From: Candidatus Woesearchaeota archaeon
Lineage (GTDB): Archaea > Nanobdellota > Nanobdellia > Woesearchaeales > GW2011-AR9
NCBI GenBank assembly: GCA_018696595.1
Contig: JABHQW010000008.1
Span: forward strand, 268,522 to 332,521
Length of the DNA: 64,000 nt
Reading direction: 5' to 3'
The position numbers and the translations under genes were made by a program. Below are positions 1-48,589 of this stretch, piece by piece (position 1 is the first letter of the stretch; each line of letters opens with the position of its first letter). A model generated the notes under the pieces. It was not told the DNA's origin. It worked only from the letters and a program-made list of their open reading frames with translations, and searched no databases.

Positions 1-701
1 TTTAATAACATTCTGGCTGCTACTTCTAAATTGGCTTTTCCGCCACTAGATAATTTTTTAAACTTAAAGGCAATCTGTTCAAGAATCTCTTCTGGATCTT
101 CACTATTAATATTATAATGGGCAGTAATTTTTTCTGTCTCATCCTCAATTAATCTTAAGGCAGTAGTTTCTATATCTTTAATCTTACCATAACTTAATGC
201 ACCGGTTTTTGCGTGTTTAGCGGGATCCTTCTCTCTTTTTGGTAATACTCCAGGAGTGTCCAAGACCATGATCTTTGGATCCACCCTGATTTTCTGAAAC
301 CCTTTAGTAAATCCAGATTCAGATGATGTTTTGGCAGAACCTTTTCCTGACAAAGCATTAATTAAGGAACTTTTACCAACGTTTGGATAACCTAAGATAC
401 CTACAACGGTGGGATTTCCTTTAGATAGTTCCATGATTTTCTTTTTTAGAATAGTAGTTCCCAACTTATCTCTGCTAGAAATGAATACACTTGGTTTTAA
501 ACTATGTTTTATCGTTTTTAGCTTCTCTTTACTTGCTAAATCACATTTATTGAAAACGTAAAGCAAGATCTTTTCTTCCTTTTTAACTTTATCTTCTACT
601 TCAAAGTTTCTGGTTTCTTCAACCATTCTAGCATCAAGTACTTCGATAATAATATCTGCTTCCTTGATTACTTTGTTTACATGTTTCCAAAATGATGGCA
701 T
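1..701 (-). CDS. Circularly permuted GTPase (YlqF/RbgA/Nug1-like ribosome-biogenesis GTPase). The C-terminus runs off the window start.
   Basis: Reverse-strand translation starts MPSFWKHVNKVIKEADIII. G4 motif FNKCDL precedes G1 GYPNVGKSSLINAL and G3 DTPGVL, which is the circularly permuted order. Confidence 0.75.
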   Translation of the reverse strand, partial: MPSFWKHVNKVIKEADIIIEVLDARMVEETRNFEVEDKVKKEEKILLYVFNKCDLASKEKLKTIKHSLKPSVFISSRDKLGTTILKKKIMELSKGNPTVVGILGYPNVGKSSLINALSGKGSAKTSSESGFTKGFQKIRVDPKIMVLDTPGVLPKREKDPAKHAKTGALSYGKIKDIETTALRLIEDETEKITAHYNINSEDPEEILEQIAFKFKKLSSGGKANLEVAARMLL

Positions 702-763
702 AAAGACCTTTTCTTTTATTAGTATATAAAAGTTTATATTAGATAACGATTTATTTATTATTT

Positions 764-1879
764 ATGGCCCTTTTTAAGTGGATATTTCACAAGCATATCA
801 ACATTGATGAACTTAAAGGTGAAGTGAAAAAGTTATATTCATTTTTTCAAGAGTATATACTTCTCTTTAATCAAAAGGGAAAAACTTTTTCTGGGATTTT
901 CCACGGAGGTTTAAATACATTAAAATTACTTTTACCTCAAATAGAAAAATCAACTAGACGTTTACTTAATGTTTTGAAGAAAGAAAATCAACTAATTGCT
1001 TTGCTTAAAGATAGAAATGTTCTTACTAATAGAGAAACTGATGAAGTTTTAGAGATTAAAGAAAAAATTAATGCTCTTAAAGATATCCTTCAAGAACAAT
1101 TAGAAATTATGAGTGAAATAAAAGAGAAGATCAATAGAATAAAATGGACTTTTGAAGAACAGGTTAAAATTAGTCCTACCATAGATAAGCTAAAAAAATT
1201 ATTCGATCAAGAACATAAAATACTCTTTTCAGAAGAAGAATTTCTTGAGAGATTGGTTTCTGATATTGTTAAAGATAAAGAGTTCCCCTTCTTGAACCGA
1301 GTTTCTTCTCCTGCAACAGAAGCTGCAATTTTAGCAGACAAGTATTTCTCTTTAATGCTTATGCGGGGAATAAGCGGGGGATATGTGAAATCAATTCCAA
1401 AAGCAATTGCTGAGGAAAAGAAAGGAGTAGCATACTACCCTGGATCTTTTGATGACCCAATCATTATTTTTTGTTTCCCAAACATTAAGTACTATGTTTT
1501 ACAAGATCCTCACAGAAGTGGAAGACAACTAAAAACAAATCTGGAACTATTACAAAGGTTTAATATTCTTCACAATTTAAAAAGAAAAGGAAGAAATTCT
1601 TACACTTTTCTTTTCAATGGCAAACAGAAGCATTTAGTTGCTTATTATGGTGTGAAAGGTGATAGTTCTAAATTTATCCCTCCAGAAATAAGAAGAGGGG
1701 TTAAAGTTTTAATGGCAAAAGCATTTACTGTGGGGCTAGAAACAAAGAAAAGAGTTTTTGATAAAATCTCTCCTTATTTGTTACCTGGATCATTTATCCA
1801 TGAAAGGATTGTTAATGAAGATATTCTTAGGCAAAAAGGATTTAAAAAACTAACAGAAATGTGGTGGATAAAGGAATAA
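764..1879 (+). CDS. Hypothetical protein, 371 aa, with a coiled-coil N-terminal half
   Basis: Long ORF with non-low-complexity sequence. I recognise no family. Confidence 0.45.
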   Translation: MALFKWIFHKHINIDELKGEVKKLYSFFQEYILLFNQKGKTFSGIFHGGLNTLKLLLPQIEKSTRRLLNVLKKENQLIALLKDRNVLTNRETDEVLEIKEKINALKDILQEQLEIMSEIKEKINRIKWTFEEQVKISPTIDKLKKLFDQEHKILFSEEEFLERLVSDIVKDKEFPFLNRVSSPATEAAILADKYFSLMLMRGISGGYVKSIPKAIAEEKKGVAYYPGSFDDPIIIFCFPNIKYYVLQDPHRSGRQLKTNLELLQRFNILHNLKRKGRNSYTFLFNGKQKHLVAYYGVKGDSSKFIPPEIRRGVKVLMAKAFTVGLETKKRVFDKISPYLLPGSFIHERIVNEDILRQKGFKKLTEMWWIKE

Positions 1880-14399: not shown

Positions 14400-15491
14400 T
14401 CAAAATTCTAGGAGTATTTTTTTATTCTTCAAATCAATCCCTTTGATCTTCTTAACTTTTTTCAACTCGCTTTCAATCTCTTTCCAATCTTTACCTTCTT
14501 TTCTTGCAGATTTAACAAAATCAATAATCTTTTGTAAGGGTTGGTAGTTCTCATAAACAGTCTCTCCCTTTTGGGTATTTAATACAATCTTATCTTCTTG
14601 TTTCTTAATCGATTTTTTCTGGTTAGAAATTATTCCTTTAGCCGAAATTATTCTTTGTTCATAGGGAGATATAATCTCAAACGGATTAAGAATATTGATT
14701 GCTTCATTATACGTTTCAGTTTTCTTTACTACTTTCTCCTCATTAGTTAATTCAAAAGGGGTTATCTGATTTTCATAAATAAATCCAGAAGGTTTCTCAA
14801 TAACTTTCAATAATGTTTTAATCCCTTTAATAATTTCTTTAATCTCTTTTTCAGTAACATCATTTTGTAATTTGTCTTTATCAACATCAGCTAATCTACA
14901 AATCTCTTCTGCATATAATCCACCAAATCCCACTTCTGTAGCAATTGAAGTAGCCAAATTCTTTTTATCACTCTTTTTCAAAACAGTAGTTAACTCTTTC
15001 TCATTCAACTTTTTCCAATCAATTCCTGGCGTAGGAAAAACATACTTCTCTTTCACTCTGATATTACGATCTTTCCATTTCTTTTGTTCAAGGGCAGCAA
15101 TAATCATATCTTTAGAGTCAGTCAAAATCAAATTTCCACGAGAGAACAATTCAATAATTAGATAATACTTCTCCTTTTTTTCAATTTCAAAAACAATAAT
15201 TCTTTCAGCGCCTTTTTGTTCAATCTTTCTAATAGAAGCGTTATCCAAATATTTCCTTAATTGCATACAGAATGAAGATGGTTTTAGGGGGGTATCTTTC
15301 CGCGAAGTCAAACAAAGAAATTTTCCAGGAACAATTTTCAATAATTGTTTGCCTTCGCCTTTAGCATGTAACTGAAATAATAGCTCCATCTTTTCCTGGT
15401 GGTAAACTTGCGATATTCTTCCATCTACTAAGAACTGTAATTCGTTAATAATCGCTGCTAGTTCAAGTGAAGCTAATCCTTTTTTGTTCAT
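14400..15491 (-). CDS. NFACT-N domain protein (short Rqc2/NEMF/FbpA-like)
   Basis: LASLELAAIINELQFLVDGRISQVYHQ...LFQLHAKG matches the NFACT-N start. At 363 aa it is far shorter than full-length archaeal homologs. Confidence 0.5.
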   Translation of the reverse strand: MNKKGLASLELAAIINELQFLVDGRISQVYHQEKMELLFQLHAKGEGKQLLKIVPGKFLCLTSRKDTPLKPSSFCMQLRKYLDNASIRKIEQKGAERIIVFEIEKKEKYYLIIELFSRGNLILTDSKDMIIAALEQKKWKDRNIRVKEKYVFPTPGIDWKKLNEKELTTVLKKSDKKNLATSIATEVGFGGLYAEEICRLADVDKDKLQNDVTEKEIKEIIKGIKTLLKVIEKPSGFIYENQITPFELTNEEKVVKKTETYNEAINILNPFEIISPYEQRIISAKGIISNQKKSIKKQEDKIVLNTQKGETVYENYQPLQKIIDFVKSARKEGKDWKEIESELKKVKKIKGIDLKNKKILLEF

Positions 15492-15560
15492 AGTGTTAAG
15501 AAATCGTCTGTTTATATAAAAATATTCTTTTCTATAGCTTCATCCAGAATAATAACATTT

Positions 15561-15688
15561 TGTATACTGCCTGCAATAGGCGCATTTTTGGAGTAGGGCA
15601 CGGCACCTTAGATTTTACTCATAAAATTCGTAAAATGTGCCTCCATTGGCGCCACTCCAAAAATCCACGCGCCGGCACGCAGTATACA
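15561..15688. ncRNA. Candidate structured element A. Large GC-rich imperfect hairpin that shares its core motif with element B at 24125-24208.
   Basis: Outer stem TGTATACTGC/GCAGTATACA. Inner stem TTTTTGGAGT/ACTCCAAAAA. Core GCACGGCAC-N25-AAAATGTGCCTCCATTGGC. Confidence 0.3.
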
Positions 15689-15722
15689 AATTCATTTTAT
15701 TCTAGATGAAGTTCTTTTCTAT

Positions 15723-18344
15723 CTATTCAATCTCAAATCGAAGTATAGCAGCAATGCCGCCTAAATCTCTAAGTTGTGCCCCTTCTCTAGTTTCTGTAGA
15801 AATAATCCTAACTTCTGCACCACCTGCTTGTGCCTTCTCTTCCAAATCAAAAATCTTATTTTCAGGAATACTCTCTGAAATTAGTAAAATGTCAACTGCG
15901 GCCATTTCTAAAGCTTTCAATGTTTCTTTCTCCCCATAAGTTGCTTTTTTGGGCGTATCTCTAAGAGTGCCTAAGAATTGTTGCATAATTTTTTTCTCGT
16001 GAGCAATTTCTTCTTCTGATAAAAGGTCTTCAGATTTTTCTAATAATTCTTGCAATCCAAAATCTCCGGTATACGATAAATCTTTAGTACCAATAATTTT
16101 TTTCTTTACATCTCCAGTAATATAATCTTTATTCATAAAATCGTTAATCGTAACACCGGGGCCACCAATAATAATGCCTTTCAAATCTTTTCCAAGAGGT
16201 AAGAATTGATCTTTCATATATTCTGCAATTTTTTTAAAATGATCTTTAGCAGCACCTTCTCTTAGACGAGCGAATCTTTGAGCAGAATTATGAACTATTA
16301 ATCCATTTGCTATGAAGTTTTGATTGCCAACAGAAATGTCAATCATTTCAGTTTCTTCATTTCTTTTTTCAATATTAGCAATCTTAACCGGCAAAATGGG
16401 GCTATTATAAACTTCTTCTAATTGTGTATATAATTTCTTATCTTTAACACAAGACAAGATAGAACTCTTAAATGTTTGTTTACTCATCATTCTCTCATTT
16501 CTAAAGAAGTTTGTTACTTTTGGAAATTGGTTTGTGTTGTAACCAGCGTTTTCAATTATCTTTCTGATTTTCGAACCAGAAGCAATAATTTGTCTGACAT
16601 TACTCTTATTTGATCTTAAATCAATACTCTTTTCTAATTTTTGTGATTTTTTATTACAAGTAAATCCAATTTGTTCTTTAAATAATTCTAAAGATTTCTT
16701 TTCTGTAATGTCAATTGTAAAGCGAGGATTATCACTTAGTGGATTTCTTCTATTGTCATATTCATGTAAAGAAGAAATGATTCCAAATCTTAACAAAGCC
16801 ATTTGTATTTGTTGTGCCAATATTTTGTTATTTATTCCAAATGCAGCCTGTTTTCTTTGAGAAACATAACCTTCTGCATCAAAAAATCCTTTCACAAAAC
16901 TTGCAAGAATTTTATTTGGAGAATTTAATATTTTTTCGGGAATTAAAGAATCTCTTGCTTTTTTTATTTCTGGAAATTCTGTTTGAATTAATCTAACTAA
17001 TGGTCTACTTGTAAATCTTAACTGGTGGTAATTCTTACTTTCTCTAAATTTATAACTACAATTCAGATCAAAGTGTTGATCAAACAATTCTTTATAATGT
17101 AAAGCAAGATCTTTACTTTGTTCAAAGAAAGTAATTCTATCTTTTTCTATACAACCATCACCCATTAGATAACCTAAAAATTGAGCGAGATTTGCTTCAA
17201 GAAGAACCGGCAATTTGATGTTTTTGTATAGTTCAGGAGTAGTATAGTTATTTAGGAAATCATAAAAATCAATTTCTAAGGCCGCACAAAGCTTTTGCAA
17301 AGGAATTCTTCCAATATTTCTTTTTCCTTTTTCGTAAGTTGATATTGCTGTTTGGGTAAGCCCAGTAAGTTTTGCAACATCTCTCTGAAATAAACTTTTT
17401 TCTTCTCGTTTTCTCTTGATTTGGTTTTGTCCTTCTTTATTTATTTTGAAAGAATTATAATATTGAACTGCTTTGATGGTTTGAAGTTTACCTTCTACTT
17501 CTATTTTTTCAGGCATAATTAGAAAATCTCCTTCTTGAAGTTCTTCAGCGGCTTTTTCTTTGATTCCATTCTCAGTTTTCACAAAGAAAATATGGTCTTT
17601 AGAAGATTCTACTTGTAGTCTTGGATATTTTGTTGTGATCTTGTAAACTTCATGTTTTTTGGCATTCCATTTATCTGTAATTGGTGAATCTTTAATTGAG
17701 TGACTTTCCATAACCATACTCTTGAGCACAATTGGGTTATGGGAATTTTCAATTTTTAAGATGTCTCCCTGAGTGGATTGAATTAATGTTCCTTTCATAC
17801 AACATTGTCCACCTGCTTTAGTTTTTCCAGGAACTTCCGAATGTGTTTTTTGCATTGGGACAATAGATTTTCCTTTCAACAGAGCAATGGTTGCATCCCT
17901 TCTATCCATAACAACAAGACCATAAACTTCTTTGTTAACCATCATTTCTTCTAATAAATCAGTTACAAAGTTTTTATCACAACGATAAATACGTGTGTTT
18001 AATTGGATTGGTGGTTCAATACTCCAAACTCGAACATCTTGTTTACCTTCTCCTGCGGCAACGTTTCCAGAAAAAACCGCAAAACCATTTTCTGGTGTGT
18101 TACCAATAGTTCTTAAATGTTGAATCATTTTTTCCAAAGCATTCTGGACATTCTTTCTAGTAGCAGCAGATTTAATGTTTGAAGCGGTTCCTTGCTCTTC
18201 TGCTAGATGTTGAATAATTTTTGTCATATCATAACCAGAAGGGATGTAAACTGTAACAAACTCTGTATGTGGAGCCTTATGGCTACGTAACTCACTTACT
18301 ATTTTTTTCAGTTTCAGTTTCTCTTGTGCGGTTATCGCTGCCAT
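15723..18344 (-). CDS. prf1: Peptide chain release factor aRF1 (eRF1 homolog) interrupted by an intein
   Basis: Exteins together are about 367 aa, with NIKS-like region and KTKAGGQ|SAQRFARLRE. The C-terminus GGIAAILRFEIE is eRF1-like. Confidence 0.9.
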   Translation of the reverse strand: MAAITAQEKLKLKKIVSELRSHKAPHTEFVTVYIPSGYDMTKIIQHLAEEQGTASNIKSAATRKNVQNALEKMIQHLRTIGNTPENGFAVFSGNVAAGEGKQDVRVWSIEPPIQLNTRIYRCDKNFVTDLLEEMMVNKEVYGLVVMDRRDATIALLKGKSIVPMQKTHSEVPGKTKAGGQCCMKGTLIQSTQGDILKIENSHNPIVLKSMVMESHSIKDSPITDKWNAKKHEVYKITTKYPRLQVESSKDHIFFVKTENGIKEKAAEELQEGDFLIMPEKIEVEGKLQTIKAVQYYNSFKINKEGQNQIKRKREEKSLFQRDVAKLTGLTQTAISTYEKGKRNIGRIPLQKLCAALEIDFYDFLNNYTTPELYKNIKLPVLLEANLAQFLGYLMGDGCIEKDRITFFEQSKDLALHYKELFDQHFDLNCSYKFRESKNYHQLRFTSRPLVRLIQTEFPEIKKARDSLIPEKILNSPNKILASFVKGFFDAEGYVSQRKQAAFGINNKILAQQIQMALLRFGIISSLHEYDNRRNPLSDNPRFTIDITEKKSLELFKEQIGFTCNKKSQKLEKSIDLRSNKSNVRQIIASGSKIRKIIENAGYNTNQFPKVTNFFRNERMMSKQTFKSSILSCVKDKKLYTQLEEVYNSPILPVKIANIEKRNEETEMIDISVGNQNFIANGLIVHNSAQRFARLREGAAKDHFKKIAEYMKDQFLPLGKDLKGIIIGGPGVTINDFMNKDYITGDVKKKIIGTKDLSYTGDFGLQELLEKSEDLLSEEEIAHEKKIMQQFLGTLRDTPKKATYGEKETLKALEMAAVDILLISESIPENKIFDLEEKAQAGGAEVRIISTETREGAQLRDLGGIAAILRFEIE
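16287..17804 (-). mobile_element. Intein (506 aa) inserted between GGQ and S of aRF1. Contains a LAGLIDADG homing endonuclease and an XRE-type HTH.
   Basis: Starts with Cys directly after GGQ. Ends ...NQNFIANGLIVHN followed by the Ser +1 residue. LAGLIDADG motifs LGYLMGDG and GFFDAEG. HTH LFQRDVAKLTGLTQTAISTYEKG. Confidence 0.85.
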
Positions 18345-22003: not shown

Positions 22004-22699
22004 TTACTTTTTAATAATGATCATACAGTGATCTTTCTCCAGCGGGTCAAGAGTTTTGTAATCAATAACCGTAAATATTTTGTCAAGCGCTGTTCGAATC
22101 TTAACAAAAATGTCTTCTGGTCTTCTTTTAACGTCAATACTTCTGGCTTTTACTGCTAACAAACCATAACCGCCTTTTTTCAAATACATGTTACAATTTC
22201 TTACAAAAATGTCCATTTGATTCTTCTGAGCAATATCTTGGTAAACAATATCTGCTTGACAAACTCTTTCAATATATTCTTCTGGGTGGTTTGCGTCTGC
22301 TAAAACTGGAATTAAGTTTTTTCTTTGTTCTGCCAAGAAAACAAAATCTCTCATTACTCTCGGAGCAGGATCAACTCCAAAGATTAATCCTTCTTCTCCA
22401 ACAATATCAGAAACAAAACTAGGTGTGTAACCATGGGAACTTCCTAAATATAAAACCACATCATTCTTTCTGATTCCAATGTTAGTGCAACCTTTCATAA
22501 TCATTGCTGCTAACTTACTTCTTTGTGGATCAAACTCTCTGTACTCATCTTTTCCATCTCTTGAAGTTCTTTCTTCGAAATGTGTTTTTCTAGGAAGAAT
22601 AGATTTAGTGAAGATTCTTTTACCTCGAGCTTCCTGATAAATTTCAAATAGTTTATGTTCTTTTATTCTTCTACTCATTTTTATTATAATGCTCCTCAA
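22004..22699 (-). CDS. flpA: Fibrillarin-like rRNA/tRNA 2'-O-methyltransferase
   Basis: KHKLFEIY, EYREFDPQRSKLAA, VLYLGSSHGYTPSFVSDIVGEEG, IPVLADANHP. These are classic fibrillarin blocks. Confidence 0.9.
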   Translation of the reverse strand: MRSIIIKMSRRIKEHKLFEIYQEARGKRIFTKSILPRKTHFEERTSRDGKDEYREFDPQRSKLAAMIMKGCTNIGIRKNDVVLYLGSSHGYTPSFVSDIVGEEGLIFGVDPAPRVMRDFVFLAEQRKNLIPVLADANHPEEYIERVCQADIVYQDIAQKNQMDIFVRNCNMYLKKGGYGLLAVKARSIDVKRRPEDIFVKIRTALDKIFTVIDYKTLDPLEKDHCMIIIKK

Positions 22700-23186
22700 C
22701 TTCTAAATAGCCCCAACCAATTGTTTGTTCCATTGTAAACCCAAGCTTTTCAACATATTCTTTAACTTCTTCTGCGGTTGGTGCTTCAATTTCTAAAAAG
22801 TGTGGGATCTTTTTCCAATTATCAATTTCAAACCGAACTTTTCCAATCGTATAAGATTCTCTGTGTTTTTTACCTTCATGAATTTTTTTCAATCCGCTTC
22901 TTTCTAATATTTCAATAGTATCTGCAAAATTGCTTGTATTAACTTCTATCTCTTCTCTCGACTTGAATACTGAACCTCTATTTGGGCCTTTAAAACAAAG
23001 TTCAACAGTTTCTCCTACCTTTCTTACTCGGATAAAACTGTCTTTCTGATATAATCTCATGTCTGGATGATCGAAAGCAAGTGCATGTATTTCTCCATCA
23101 AAAACTTTCTCTGCCCCTAAATCTAATAGTTTCTTTCTGATCTCTTCAAGATCAATGTCCAAGATTTTCACTTCAATTTCTTTCAT
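22671..23186 (-). CDS. CYTH-domain protein (class IV adenylyl cyclase/triphosphatase fold)
   Basis: N-terminal EIEVKILDID (ExExK motif). 171 aa. Acidic residues alternate on beta strands. Confidence 0.65.
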   Translation of the reverse strand: MKEIEVKILDIDLEEIRKKLLDLGAEKVFDGEIHALAFDHPDMRLYQKDSFIRVRKVGETVELCFKGPNRGSVFKSREEIEVNTSNFADTIEILERSGLKKIHEGKKHRESYTIGKVRFEIDNWKKIPHFLEIEAPTAEEVKEYVEKLGFTMEQTIGWGYLEVEEHYNKNE

Positions 23187-24073: not shown

Positions 24074-24124
24074 GGAAACTCTACAGAAACGTAAGCTATA
24101 TAAACTTTCGCTTAAAAAGTATGA

Positions 24125-24208
24125 GTTTAGTTAGCTTTGCCAATGGAGGCACATTTTTTTCCATTGTTTGAAAAAAATAATCGTGCCGTGCAAGCTTAAC
24201 TAAACACA
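24125..24208 (+). ncRNA. Candidate structured element B, a hairpin with an ACA trinucleotide immediately 3' of the lower stem (H/ACA-like geometry). It shares the core motif with element A in inverted orientation.
   Basis: Lower stem GTTTAGTTAGCTTTGC/GCAAGCTTAACTAAAC, followed by ACA. Core CCAATGGAGGCACATTTT...GTGCCGTGC. Confidence 0.3.
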
Positions 24209-24232
24209 TTCCTTAAAATCGAGGGTTTTATA

Positions 24233-47533: not shown

Positions 47534-48589
47534 CTACCACTCTAATTTGTAACGTAGAATTGCGGCAATTCCCCCTAGGCCGTCTAACTTTTGCCCGGTT
47601 TCTTGTTTAGAAGAAAGAATGTTAATTTGTCCTTTTAGTACATCAATCTGTTTCATCAACTTGTCTAGTTCTATGTAATGGCCTTCTTCTCTCTTTTGTT
47701 GAATGAAATCATCTGTTAACAATAATTTACTAACCGCTCCTGCATCAATTGCTTTTTTTACTTCTCCCCAAGCATATACTGCCAGTCCATTTTTGTTGAT
47801 TTCGCTTAACAGTTCATCCATTAATATTTTTTCTGTTCTTGCCCTAGAAGATTGTAATGTTTTTTCTAATTCTTTACTTCCTAACACTTCGTCAATAGAT
47901 CTTTCACTAACATCAGAACAATTAACCAAAACTATTTTCTTTTTTACTTCTGGATCAGAAATTTTCTTTAACAAATTTTCTTTCCAAAAAGCAGGAGAGG
48001 CAAGAATTATTTTTTCTGGCAAATGCCTTTCATTGTAAGTATTAATTGTTTTAATAATTTCTTGTTGAAAATCTGTTTTGATTTCTACGGTCTTGGCTTT
48101 TTTAGGAACGTCACCTTTTATTTTTAGAATAACTTGGTAGCCAAACTTTTTAGTTAATGCAAACAATGATTCCTCCCGGTCAAAAATTATAATTAAGAAA
48201 TTATGTTTCTTTTGAGCAGATTCTTCCAACTTTTGTTTTTGAAATTCCATCCAGCCAACTTTTTCTAAAACAAATTCGCTACCTTCCTCTAAAGGAATTG
48301 CTTGATAACTATCTTTTGGAACTTCCTCTGGCCCTTCCTTAATTTTACCGTTAACTCTTAAAATGTCTCCCGACTGATCAAAATCTATGGTTTCTGCTTC
48401 GATTTTTAAGAAATAAGTTTTTTTAACAGTTTTAGCATTATCTCCATCACCAATTTTAATTTTTCTAGTAGTTTTCCCTTTAACAAAATCTCCCGGATCA
48501 ATCAAATGGCTTAGGTACCATAAGTCTTCAGGATCTGTTATTCTTAGTTTTACGTCTCCTTTCTTAAAATCTGCATGGATTATGTTCAT
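47534..48589 (-). CDS. pelA: Pelota (Dom34 homolog), mRNA surveillance factor
   Basis: Pelota N-domain. C-terminal eRF1-like domain ending GGIAAILRYKLEW. Confidence 0.85.
   Translation of the reverse strand: MNIIHADFKKGDVKLRITDPEDLWYLSHLIDPGDFVKGKTTRKIKIGDGDNAKTVKKTYFLKIEAETIDFDQSGDILRVNGKIKEGPEEVPKDSYQAIPLEEGSEFVLEKVGWMEFQKQKLEESAQKKHNFLIIIFDREESLFALTKKFGYQVILKIKGDVPKKAKTVEIKTDFQQEIIKTINTYNERHLPEKIILASPAFWKENLLKKISDPEVKKKIVLVNCSDVSERSIDEVLGSKELEKTLQSSRARTEKILMDELLSEINKNGLAVYAWGEVKKAIDAGAVSKLLLTDDFIQQKREEGHYIELDKLMKQIDVLKGQINILSSKQETGQKLDGLGGIAAILRYKLEW

Follow-up and report, generated by a model that had tools for sequence, protein, structure and literature searches.

A hairpin element of Woesearchaeota-type archaea with a constant core and covarying stems, and its proposed reading as mobile palindromic DNA

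The stretch of DNA analysed here, hereafter the window, comprises 64,000 nt of contig JABHQW010000008.1 (positions 268,522 to 332,521, forward strand) of a Candidatus Woesearchaeota archaeon (assembly GCA_018696595.1) and contains two copies, named A (15561-15688) and B (24125-24208), of an intergenic hairpin element. A lies between the genes for aRF1, which carries an intein, and NFACT_N, and B between nop5 and an open reading frame (ORF) of 93 aa; the genes flanking A are as given in a first-pass annotation of this DNA. That annotation had described nested inverted repeats around a motif in A, and these were found in the sequence, with TGTATACTGC (15561-15570) paired with GCAGTATACA (15679-15688) and, further inside, TTTTTGGAGT complementary to ACTCCAAAAA. 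The two blocks of the motif, GCACGGCAC at 15598-15606 and GTGCCTCCATTGGC at 15637-15650, recur on the minus strand at 24139-24191, which confirms the claimed repetition in reverse orientation with identical spacing: A and B share GCACGGCAC-N30-GTGCCTCCATTGGC, the gap from GGCAC to GTGCC is 30 nt in both, and a search of the window for GCACGGCAC-N20-40-GTGCC gave two matches where 0.00 were expected (100 shuffles). The stems enclosing the motif are unrelated in the two copies, that of B being different yet still self-complementary, as had been noted. Two other parts of the description stood only partly. A is indeed GC-rich, with 47.7% where the window as a whole has 31.9%, but B is not (35.7%), and what had been delimited as a single element is a real hairpin whose palindrome runs beyond the first coordinates in both copies (Table 1), with A being a nested composite. 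Both strands of both copies fold markedly better than shuffled sequence, with z = -6.4 and -5.9 for A and -4.3 and -3.8 for B when folded as RNA; folding of the extended palindromes as DNA gave z = -4.2 and -5.1 for B (values for A in Table 1).

Further copies were identified by scanning one genome per species with the pattern CACGGCAC-N15-45-GTGCCTCCATTGG, which returned 29 loci. Approximately 23 of these have paired stems, all of them in metagenome-assembled genomes (MAGs) of the Woesearchaeota/Nanoarchaeota type and with several copies per MAG, and six bacterial matches are without stems and as numerous as chance predicts. A scan of metagenomes contributed a further 35 loci, chiefly on low-GC marine and groundwater contigs, so that the two scans together gave 58 exact copies, 41 of them distinct, while the viral contigs scanned held no copy of either of the two unit types described below. 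The metagenome contigs carrying copies have GC contents of 0.30-0.41, with one at 0.53. Homologues of Nop5 and agmatinase assign the organism of the window to the Woesearchaeota/Nanoarchaeia. A covariance model trained on 12 copies, with A and B excluded, scored members of the family at 37-83 bits and the chance bacterial matches at 16-21 bits, and within the window its matches were exactly A (15588-15661, 52.3 bits, E = 4e-13) and B (61.6 bits, E = 7e-16). A core of ~21 nt is exact in every recovered copy across several MAGs and environments, a constancy that is partly one of construction, as the collection scans demanded the exact string and the looser search was confined to ~500 kb flanking the copies found. 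Decayed copies were also encountered (L052:5933, L032 and L018). The hairpin family is a new one, consisting of previously undescribed palindromic DNA elements of DPANN (Woesearchaeota-type) archaea; a search of the literature for palindromic elements of DPANN or transposable elements of the miniature inverted-repeat kind (MITEs) in this group found nothing relevant, and a review of MITEs names no DPANN example (PMC10969869).

Two observations concern the assignment of the contigs themselves. The contig at 53% GC (Ga0209542_10011214, L050) bears a well-formed unit, and its genes are 63-73% identical to their counterparts in the low-GC MAG L012; the contig may be chimeric or derive from a higher-GC relative. 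A number of MAGs titled 'uncultured Methanosarcinales archaeon' (loci L006, L008, L012, L015-L019, L024, L025, L027, L029, L032 and L071) bear the element together with Woesearchaeota-type genes, and their titles look wrong.

The hairpin unit is ~65-75 bp in length. In its common form, type I, the order from 5' to 3' is P1, a closing G, CAC, P2, a bulge, the P3 hairpin, U, GUGCC, UCCAUUGG, C and P1'. P1 is a variable lower stem of 9-13 bp, beside which an asymmetric internal loop places CAC on the 5' side opposite UCCAUUGG on the 3' side; P2 is a conserved 5-bp helix, GGCAC/GUGCC; the bulge, on the 5' side, is 4-6 nt long (GAUU in 16 of 41 copies, CNNRG-like in the rest); and P3 is a variable top hairpin, the type I stretch between the strands of P2 measuring 22-45 nt. 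The C that follows UCCAUUGG is succeeded by an unpaired purine or a G·G mismatch before P1' begins. Arms of one copy fit each other far better than arms exchanged between copies, with pairing of 11.1 for cognate against 3.9 for swapped arms in P1 and of 6.9 against 3.3 in P3. In a model-guided alignment, which was fitted to the structure and so somewhat favours the pairing values, pairing reaches 96.6% of stem cells, compared with 72.7% in shuffles, and changes on both sides occur in 15 of 18 pairs (201 cells against 65 in shuffles); none of 500 shuffles equalled the pairing and double-change values, and sliding of the partner columns lowered pairing to 30-54%. Even P2 covaries in diverged members of the family (GGCGC/GCGCC and GGUGC/GCACC). 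As the core is invariant and the stems change in compensating pairs, it is the folded form, whether single-strand hairpin or cruciform, that is conserved. The spacing of the P2 halves ranges from 22 nt to more than 130 nt, and a protein on linear duplex DNA could therefore not join the halves, which only a hairpin or cruciform juxtaposes.

Composite A is built of three layers, namely an outer shell, a type II unit on the minus strand and a type I unit on the plus strand at the apex of the type II unit (Table 1). A bare type II copy (L009:4387-4450, minus strand) has the simple top UUUUUU-CUAG-AAAAAA, and it is the position of this apical loop that the type I unit occupies in A. The three-layer composite was also found at another locus in a relative (L041), adjoining a MiaB-like gene, with compensating changes in every stem and a 9-bp repeat, TTTTCTTCA, flanking the shell, while L018 represents a damaged version of it. 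The neighbouring genes differ, so A is not orthologous with L018 or L041, which are instances of the same composite at other loci. Shells of this type have the terminal inverted repeats AGCTTCATC and flanking duplications of 9-11 bp. A second, unrelated shell has TAGTTGCSGAC ends and 3-bp flanking repeats (AAG, TAT, ATT), and encloses a reversed type-II-like unit plus a type I unit in L046 and L058, and a type I unit alone in L037, L052 and L062. The same core thus occurs in at least two unrelated shells and also bare. The ends of simple units are unrelated in sequence, and terminal repeats are common only to the outer shells of some composites.

Table 1. Positions of elements A and B, their parts and their immediate context in the window.
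Feature	Position	Strand	Remark
Left direct repeat TTCTTTTCTAT	15525-15535	.	11-nt exact match to 15712-15722; candidate target-site duplication of composite A
Right direct repeat TTCTTTTCTAT	15712-15722	.	directly 3' of aRF1 stop codon (15723-15725)
Full palindrome, composite A	15538-15711	.	outer shell with terminal inverted repeats CTTCATC.../...GATGAAG; DNA fold z -8.6/-9.5
Type II hairpin unit	15561-15688	-	same layout as bare copy L009:4387-4450(-); composite also in L041 and L018
Parts of type II unit			P1 UGUAUACUGC/GCAGUAUACA, GUGCC, P2 GGCGC/GCGCC, bulge GUGGA, P3 U5/A5, UAUUGCAG
Canonical type I unit, 69 nt	15590-15658	+	within apical loop of type II unit
Parts of type I unit of A			P1 GGAGUAGGG/CGCCACUCC, CAC, P2 GGCAC/GUGCC, bulge CUUAG, P3 AUUUUAC/GUAAAAU, UCCAUUGG
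Core 5' half, CAC GGCAC	15599-15606	+	
Core 3' half, GUGCC UCCAUUGG	15637-15649	+	
Element B, single type I unit	24129-24200	-	P1 of CUUG/CAAAG type, bulge GAUU, P3 AUUUUUUUC/GGAAAAAAAU
Extended imperfect palindrome round B	24102-24228	.	exact boundaries uncertain; insertion inferred from spacer lengths
Candidate 7-nt direct repeat CTTAAAA at B	24111-24117 and 24212-24218		
TATA-like box of leaderless NFACT	15511-15524	-	adjoins left repeat of A; context, not element
Palindromic TATA box (TATATAAA/TTTATATA) of leaderless nop5	24097-24104	.	context, not element; B lies between box and start of 93-aa ORF

Comparison with relatives shows that units are both gained and lost. The spacer between nop5 and the small ORF measures 57 nt in relatives with Nop5 identities of 87, 70 and 68%, and 159 nt in the window, and B is therefore an insertion of ~100 nt. 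Composites also occur in near-identical form at unrelated loci: all that L046 and L058 have in common is a 198-nt composite, 98.5% identical and set between unrelated flanks, with two of the three differences forming a compensating pair in P1, and one element of ~170 nt lies in different flanks in L037, L052 and L062. Direct repeats of 11, 10 and 9 bp were found at, or at most 2 nt from, the palindrome ends of A, L031 and L041, respectively. Flanking direct repeats of at least 8 nt occur at 3 of 24 copies compared with 2.9% of controls, and those of at least 10 nt at 2 of 24 copies compared with 0 of 552 control pairings of unrelated flanks. In the population of the window itself A and B appear to be fixed, the spacer length being constant on every contig shown (4 places for nop5 and 5 for NFACT, of 24 and 23 contigs read), and the region of B is identical on three aligned contigs (L001-L003). 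One population contig (L078, 1-124) stops 124 nt upstream of NFACT, within A, which suggests that the palindrome breaks assemblies. A comparison of L066 and L047 as a filled and empty pair was set aside, the alignment being too poor to use.

One copy lies within a protein-coding sequence. In the agmatinase alleles P0121 and P0123 a unit is present in frame and free of stops (72 nt in L027, 66 nt in L047/L067), at a point between a helix and the strand running to the GGDHS motif, and homologues 82-87% identical are without the insert and 21-23 residues shorter. No target duplication accompanies this insertion; an apparent 8-nt duplication was rejected because it derives from lysine codons and deletion of one copy breaks the frame. 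Between the two filled alleles there is a length difference of 3+3 nt, one half in each arm of P3, that leaves pairing and frame intact. The alleles fall in separate clades, each with empty sister sequences, which implies that the insert was gained repeatedly at one site, was lost precisely or was transferred by recombination. AlphaFold renders the insert (residues 88-107) as a low-confidence coil in an otherwise reasonable fold (predicted template modelling score, pTM, 0.78, from a shallow alignment). Read in the frame used by agmatinase, just 4 of 38 intergenic copies would keep the phase and be free of stops, and the insert is therefore most likely translated and not spliced out. A second in-gene candidate, in L014, is ambiguous and was downgraded as a clean case: the methyltransferase ORF (130-1005, minus strand) lacks the start codon of its homologues, whose first codon comes after the element, and is open across a hairpin unit from an ATG located 81 codons upstream. 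This may be an N-terminal fusion made by the element or a mis-called start.

On balance, we lean towards reading the feature as a copy of a small, non-coding, structure-defined and non-autonomous mobile palindromic DNA element of Woesearchaeota-type DPANN archaea. The first-pass annotation had taken the compensatory variation as a sign of selection on structure, which is borne out by the invariant core and the paired stem changes (arm swaps; 96.6% against 72.7% pairing), and had favoured a non-coding RNA (ncRNA) family or, as an alternative, a structured DNA site, rather than a MITE. If the hairpins were small ncRNA genes or cis-regulatory RNA elements, with an internal loop that binds a protein or ligand and stems that covary under selection at the RNA level, the strong covariation and constant loops would be accounted for, as would the GC-rich island that A forms within an AT-rich genome, the location of nearly all copies between genes and upstream of one, the TATA-like boxes 10-22 nt from some hairpin feet and the strong, independent matches of the covariance model. 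The mismatches in the stems are, however, symmetric, G·T numbering 18 and A·C 14 in a total of 1034 pairs, without the large excess of G·U over A·C that would mark an RNA read from one strand, and the folding energies of the two strands are alike (15 against 10 copies, p = 0.41). Among tandem gene pairs four copies are in sense and five in antisense orientation to their neighbours (a tally of the genome-scan loci), and upstream of the same gene, in the orthologous spacer of L024 and L025, the element lies in opposite orientations. Neither a T-run nor a promoter was found at a constant place on one side of the copies, T-runs following the hairpin in 4 copies against 6. It is because of this mismatch symmetry and mixed orientation, the nesting of units in opposite orientation, the presence or absence of units between close relatives, the near-identical copies elsewhere and the in-frame insertion in agmatinase that mobile palindromic DNA is preferred to an ncRNA, which we consider unlikely. 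The preference of the first-pass annotation for an ncRNA is accordingly not upheld; its alternative of a structured DNA site fits the data, and its dismissal of a MITE runs against the presence/absence variation and the near-identical copies at unrelated loci, which point to mobile palindromic DNA. Of the checks it had named, the covariance model yielded further copies and covariation, the folds were found on both strands, and the element proved to be neither a tRNA nor any other Rfam family: a scan of the window at Rfam gathering scores gave no match, matches below threshold at A and B were only microRNA and small nucleolar RNA noise far under the cut-offs, and ARAGORN found no tRNA at A or B.

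Several more specific candidates were also considered and rejected. A tRNA, with or without an intron, is contradicted by the empty ARAGORN and Rfam scans and by flanks without room for exons, and a small conserved ORF (AUG GAG GCA, reverse strand) by loop lengths that take every value modulo 3. A K-turn, H/ACA or C/D small RNA was not recognised, as the sequence reads without GA pairs, box sequences or a fixed ACA box. The archaeal bulge-helix-bulge consists of two 3-nt bulges on opposite strands with a 4-bp helix between them; here P2 has 5 bp and both unpaired segments beside it are on the 5' strand (folds and sequence), so that such an intron was rejected. An element in the 5' untranslated region of nop5 was likewise rejected, since the TATA box of nop5 is downstream of B and B is therefore outside the nop5 transcript. 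A scan for promoters and terminators of bacterial type was uninformative for archaea.

A number of observations weigh against mobile DNA. Flanking repeats are of inconsistent length (0, 3, 7 and 9-11 bp), and we know of no single cut-and-paste chemistry that yields such a series. No transposase or recombinase gene adjoins any copy in the flanks, and none was found among the 50 of 74 window ORFs (at least 90 aa) that were scanned, the other 24 being mostly in a ribosomal-protein operon at 26.5-39.2 kb. Copy number is low, at ~2-5 exact copies per MAG, and degenerate cores were few in the ~500 kb of flanks searched, which, if the same held genome-wide, could mean selection on resident copies and hence a host function. 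The location of copies points the same way, as 29 of ~30 intergenic copies are upstream of at least one gene and several lie 10-22 nt from a TATA box, and a host role at promoters is possible.

These data could be accommodated by a structured site in the DNA that serves the host, such as a promoter-side cruciform bound by a regulator or chromatin protein, which may once have been mobile and is now kept by selection. In keeping with this, copies lie in ~14 divergent, ~15 tandem and at most one convergent gene arrangement, the TATA boxes of leaderless genes lie right beside A and B, the core is exact in recovered copies with few degenerate ones in the flanks (subject to the exact core that the scans required), and a symmetric constraint on both strands would suit a cruciform. 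The depletion of convergent spacers, however, may reflect only the space available, as these are very short in compact genomes. The genes neighbouring the copies have no common function, relatives without B at the same promoter show no visible replacement, and the agmatinase copy has no promoter context. A site retained for the host seems unlikely to us; as mobile DNA, neither A nor B need have a host function.

The promoter at B deserves a separate description. In L033, which is without B, a single palindromic TATA box (TATATAAA/TTTATATA; L033 9943-10001) lies 23-26 nt from both divergent starts, those of nop5 and the small ORF, and has the look of a single shared bidirectional promoter, both genes being leaderless. 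In the window the box is parted by B from the 93-aa ORF, which would need a leader of ~130 nt or a new promoter.

An ordinary MITE, moved by a DDE transposase that reads terminal inverted repeats and with the hairpin core as incidental cargo, would explain the shells, which end in inverted repeats and are flanked by duplications (9-11 bp for AGCTTCATC, 3 bp for TAGTTGCSGAC). The conserved part is, however, internal and asymmetric rather than terminal, simple units have unrelated ends, and the agmatinase insertion lacks a duplication. As the same core is found bare and in two or more unrelated shells, the shells are better seen as hosts that were entered by the hairpin unit, and we regard an ordinary MITE as quite improbable. 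Least credible of all is an intervening sequence that would be excised from, or passed over in, the RNA (a mini-intron formed by a hairpin, or a stretch bypassed by the ribosome), which would suit a strongly conserved fold inside the agmatinase coding sequence but is opposed by both alleles being in frame and stop-free even through the paired P3 change, by the 4 of 38 intergenic copies that chance would leave so, by the bulges on the 5' strand on either side of P2, which give no bulge-helix-bulge, and by most copies being intergenic.

Returning to a mobile palindromic DNA, we infer its way of moving as follows. A protein supplied in trans would recognise, on a single strand that has folded or a cruciform that has been extruded, the bulge, P2 and the unpaired core bases of the asymmetric loop, and would cut and join at the foot of P1 by position or distance and not by sequence. 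Such cutting by position would account for the lack of conserved ends and of a target duplication in agmatinase. The favoured, or the best-tolerated, landing sites would be the single-stranded loops of palindromes already present and AT-rich spacers immediately upstream of TATA boxes, and only copies still able to fold would be propagated, which would give rise to the covariation (as argued for REPINs, PMC3116915). A would then be a three-layer composite that landed right after the stop codon of aRF1, and B a single unit that landed between the shared TATA box and the 93-aa ORF. More specifically, and only tentatively, the units may be the substrate of an archaeal enzyme that reads the folded hairpin (loop, 5-bp helix and bulge), cuts at a measured distance and prefers the loops of palindromes; in a variant of this proposal the host would have taken over the units as cruciform landmarks beside promoters. 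Should it hold, the hairpin-reading enzyme would be an archaeal counterpart of REPIN-RAYT or attC-IntI, and the elements a new class of structure-addressed mobile DNA in DPANN.

The genomes of DPANN archaea rank among the smallest and most streamlined of cells, and little is known of the mobile DNA in them. A core that stays constant amid paired change provides a handle for finding the enzyme that reads the element, and hairpin-reading enzymes such as HUH transposases and integron integrases have proved useful as tools. The case also serves as a warning for ncRNA screens, as a GC-richer island in an AT-rich archaeon cannot be taken for an RNA gene on strong covariation alone, and agmatinase with its insert is a clear archaeal case in which selfish DNA has given an enzyme an additional peptide loop.

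Some features of other genes in the window may be recorded. The aRF1 gene (15723-18344, minus strand) encodes 873 aa including an intein with a LAGLIDADG endonuclease and HTH_3, whereas aRF1 of a relative has 367 aa and no intein. The NFACT ORF (14400-15491, minus strand) encodes 363 aa with the NFACT_N domain alone and is of the same length in all population contigs; archaeal NFACT proteins are generally considerably longer. A gene with a CYTH domain (22671-23186, minus strand) lies between nop5 and fibrillarin, also in close relatives, and is absent from the more distant L033 and L034. At 47534-48589 (minus strand) a second protein of the eRF1 fold is encoded (351 aa, eRF1 domains 1-3), which is probably Pelota. 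Neither the 64-kb window nor 23 related loci (L004-L032, ~170 kb) yielded a tRNA gene with ARAGORN, where we would presume ~10 per ~230 kb for a genome of ~1 Mb with ~40 tRNAs; the shortfall may reflect unusual or intron-bearing tRNA genes.

Among known systems, classical MITEs resemble the element in having several copies per genome, no coding capacity and presence/absence variation, and differ in that no terminal inverted repeats are common to all copies of the DPANN family. The ends of IS200/IS605 elements consist of two separate subterminal hairpins and require a fixed tetra- or pentanucleotide target. Elements of this group and of PATE type share recognition of a hairpin in single-stranded DNA, and their lack of target duplication and precise excision would fit the insertion in agmatinase and the patchy occurrence of its filled alleles; several of the DPANN composites, by contrast, have direct repeats of 3-11 bp, and neither tnpA nor tnpB was seen near any copy. 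The GC clusters of yeast and fungal mitochondria are likewise short palindromes, GC-richer than the AT-rich genome they inhabit, occasionally located in coding sequence and obscure in mechanism. They belong to another domain of life and are not known to resemble the DPANN element in sequence, B is not GC-rich, and the DPANN core is defined and asymmetric.

The integron attC site is recognised by IntI as a folded single strand and has conserved boxes, an unpaired spacer, extrahelical bases and a variable, sometimes long, terminal structure. It is, like the present element, a recombination site poor in sequence and rich in structure. Its conserved part is at the foot of the hairpin, whereas that of the DPANN element is in the middle; no R''/R' boxes (RYYYAAC/GTTRRRY) are visible in the DPANN sequences, and the copies are solitary, in both orientations and without a common neighbour gene or cassette arrays. 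REPINs, the doublets of REP sequences associated with RAYT tyrosine transposases in bacteria, commonly have compensating changes in their hairpins (PMC3116915). They too are short, non-coding and mostly extragenic, form a long hairpin with two invariant blocks and a compensating variable spacer, are thought to move as folded single-stranded DNA by means of an enzyme encoded elsewhere, and persist for long at modest copy number. Differences are that the DPANN family is archaeal, that its copies have the GTAG head in 5 of 41 cases and the CGTC head in 0 of 41, that its invariant blocks are not small palindromes, and that its units nest in loops and in one case occupy a coding sequence; no RAYT-like gene was seen in the flanks of copies or among the 50 of 74 window ORFs scanned.

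The palindromic elements of Rickettsia (RPEs) are repeats in the small, AT-rich genome of a host-dependent organism, and the enzyme that mobilises them is unknown (PMC10969869). They share with the DPANN family insertion both between genes and in frame within protein genes, where an extra peptide is tolerated. The two differ in that the copies of an RPE family resemble one another over their full length and occur in unrelated protein genes, whereas in the DPANN family only the ~21-nt core is constant, stems differ completely and there is one clear host gene. The element has the defining features of none of these families. By analogy, it would appear to work most like a REPIN or attC, because it would be recognised by structure, and its genomic behaviour comes closest to that of an RPE, with copies between genes and, in one instance, in frame within a gene.

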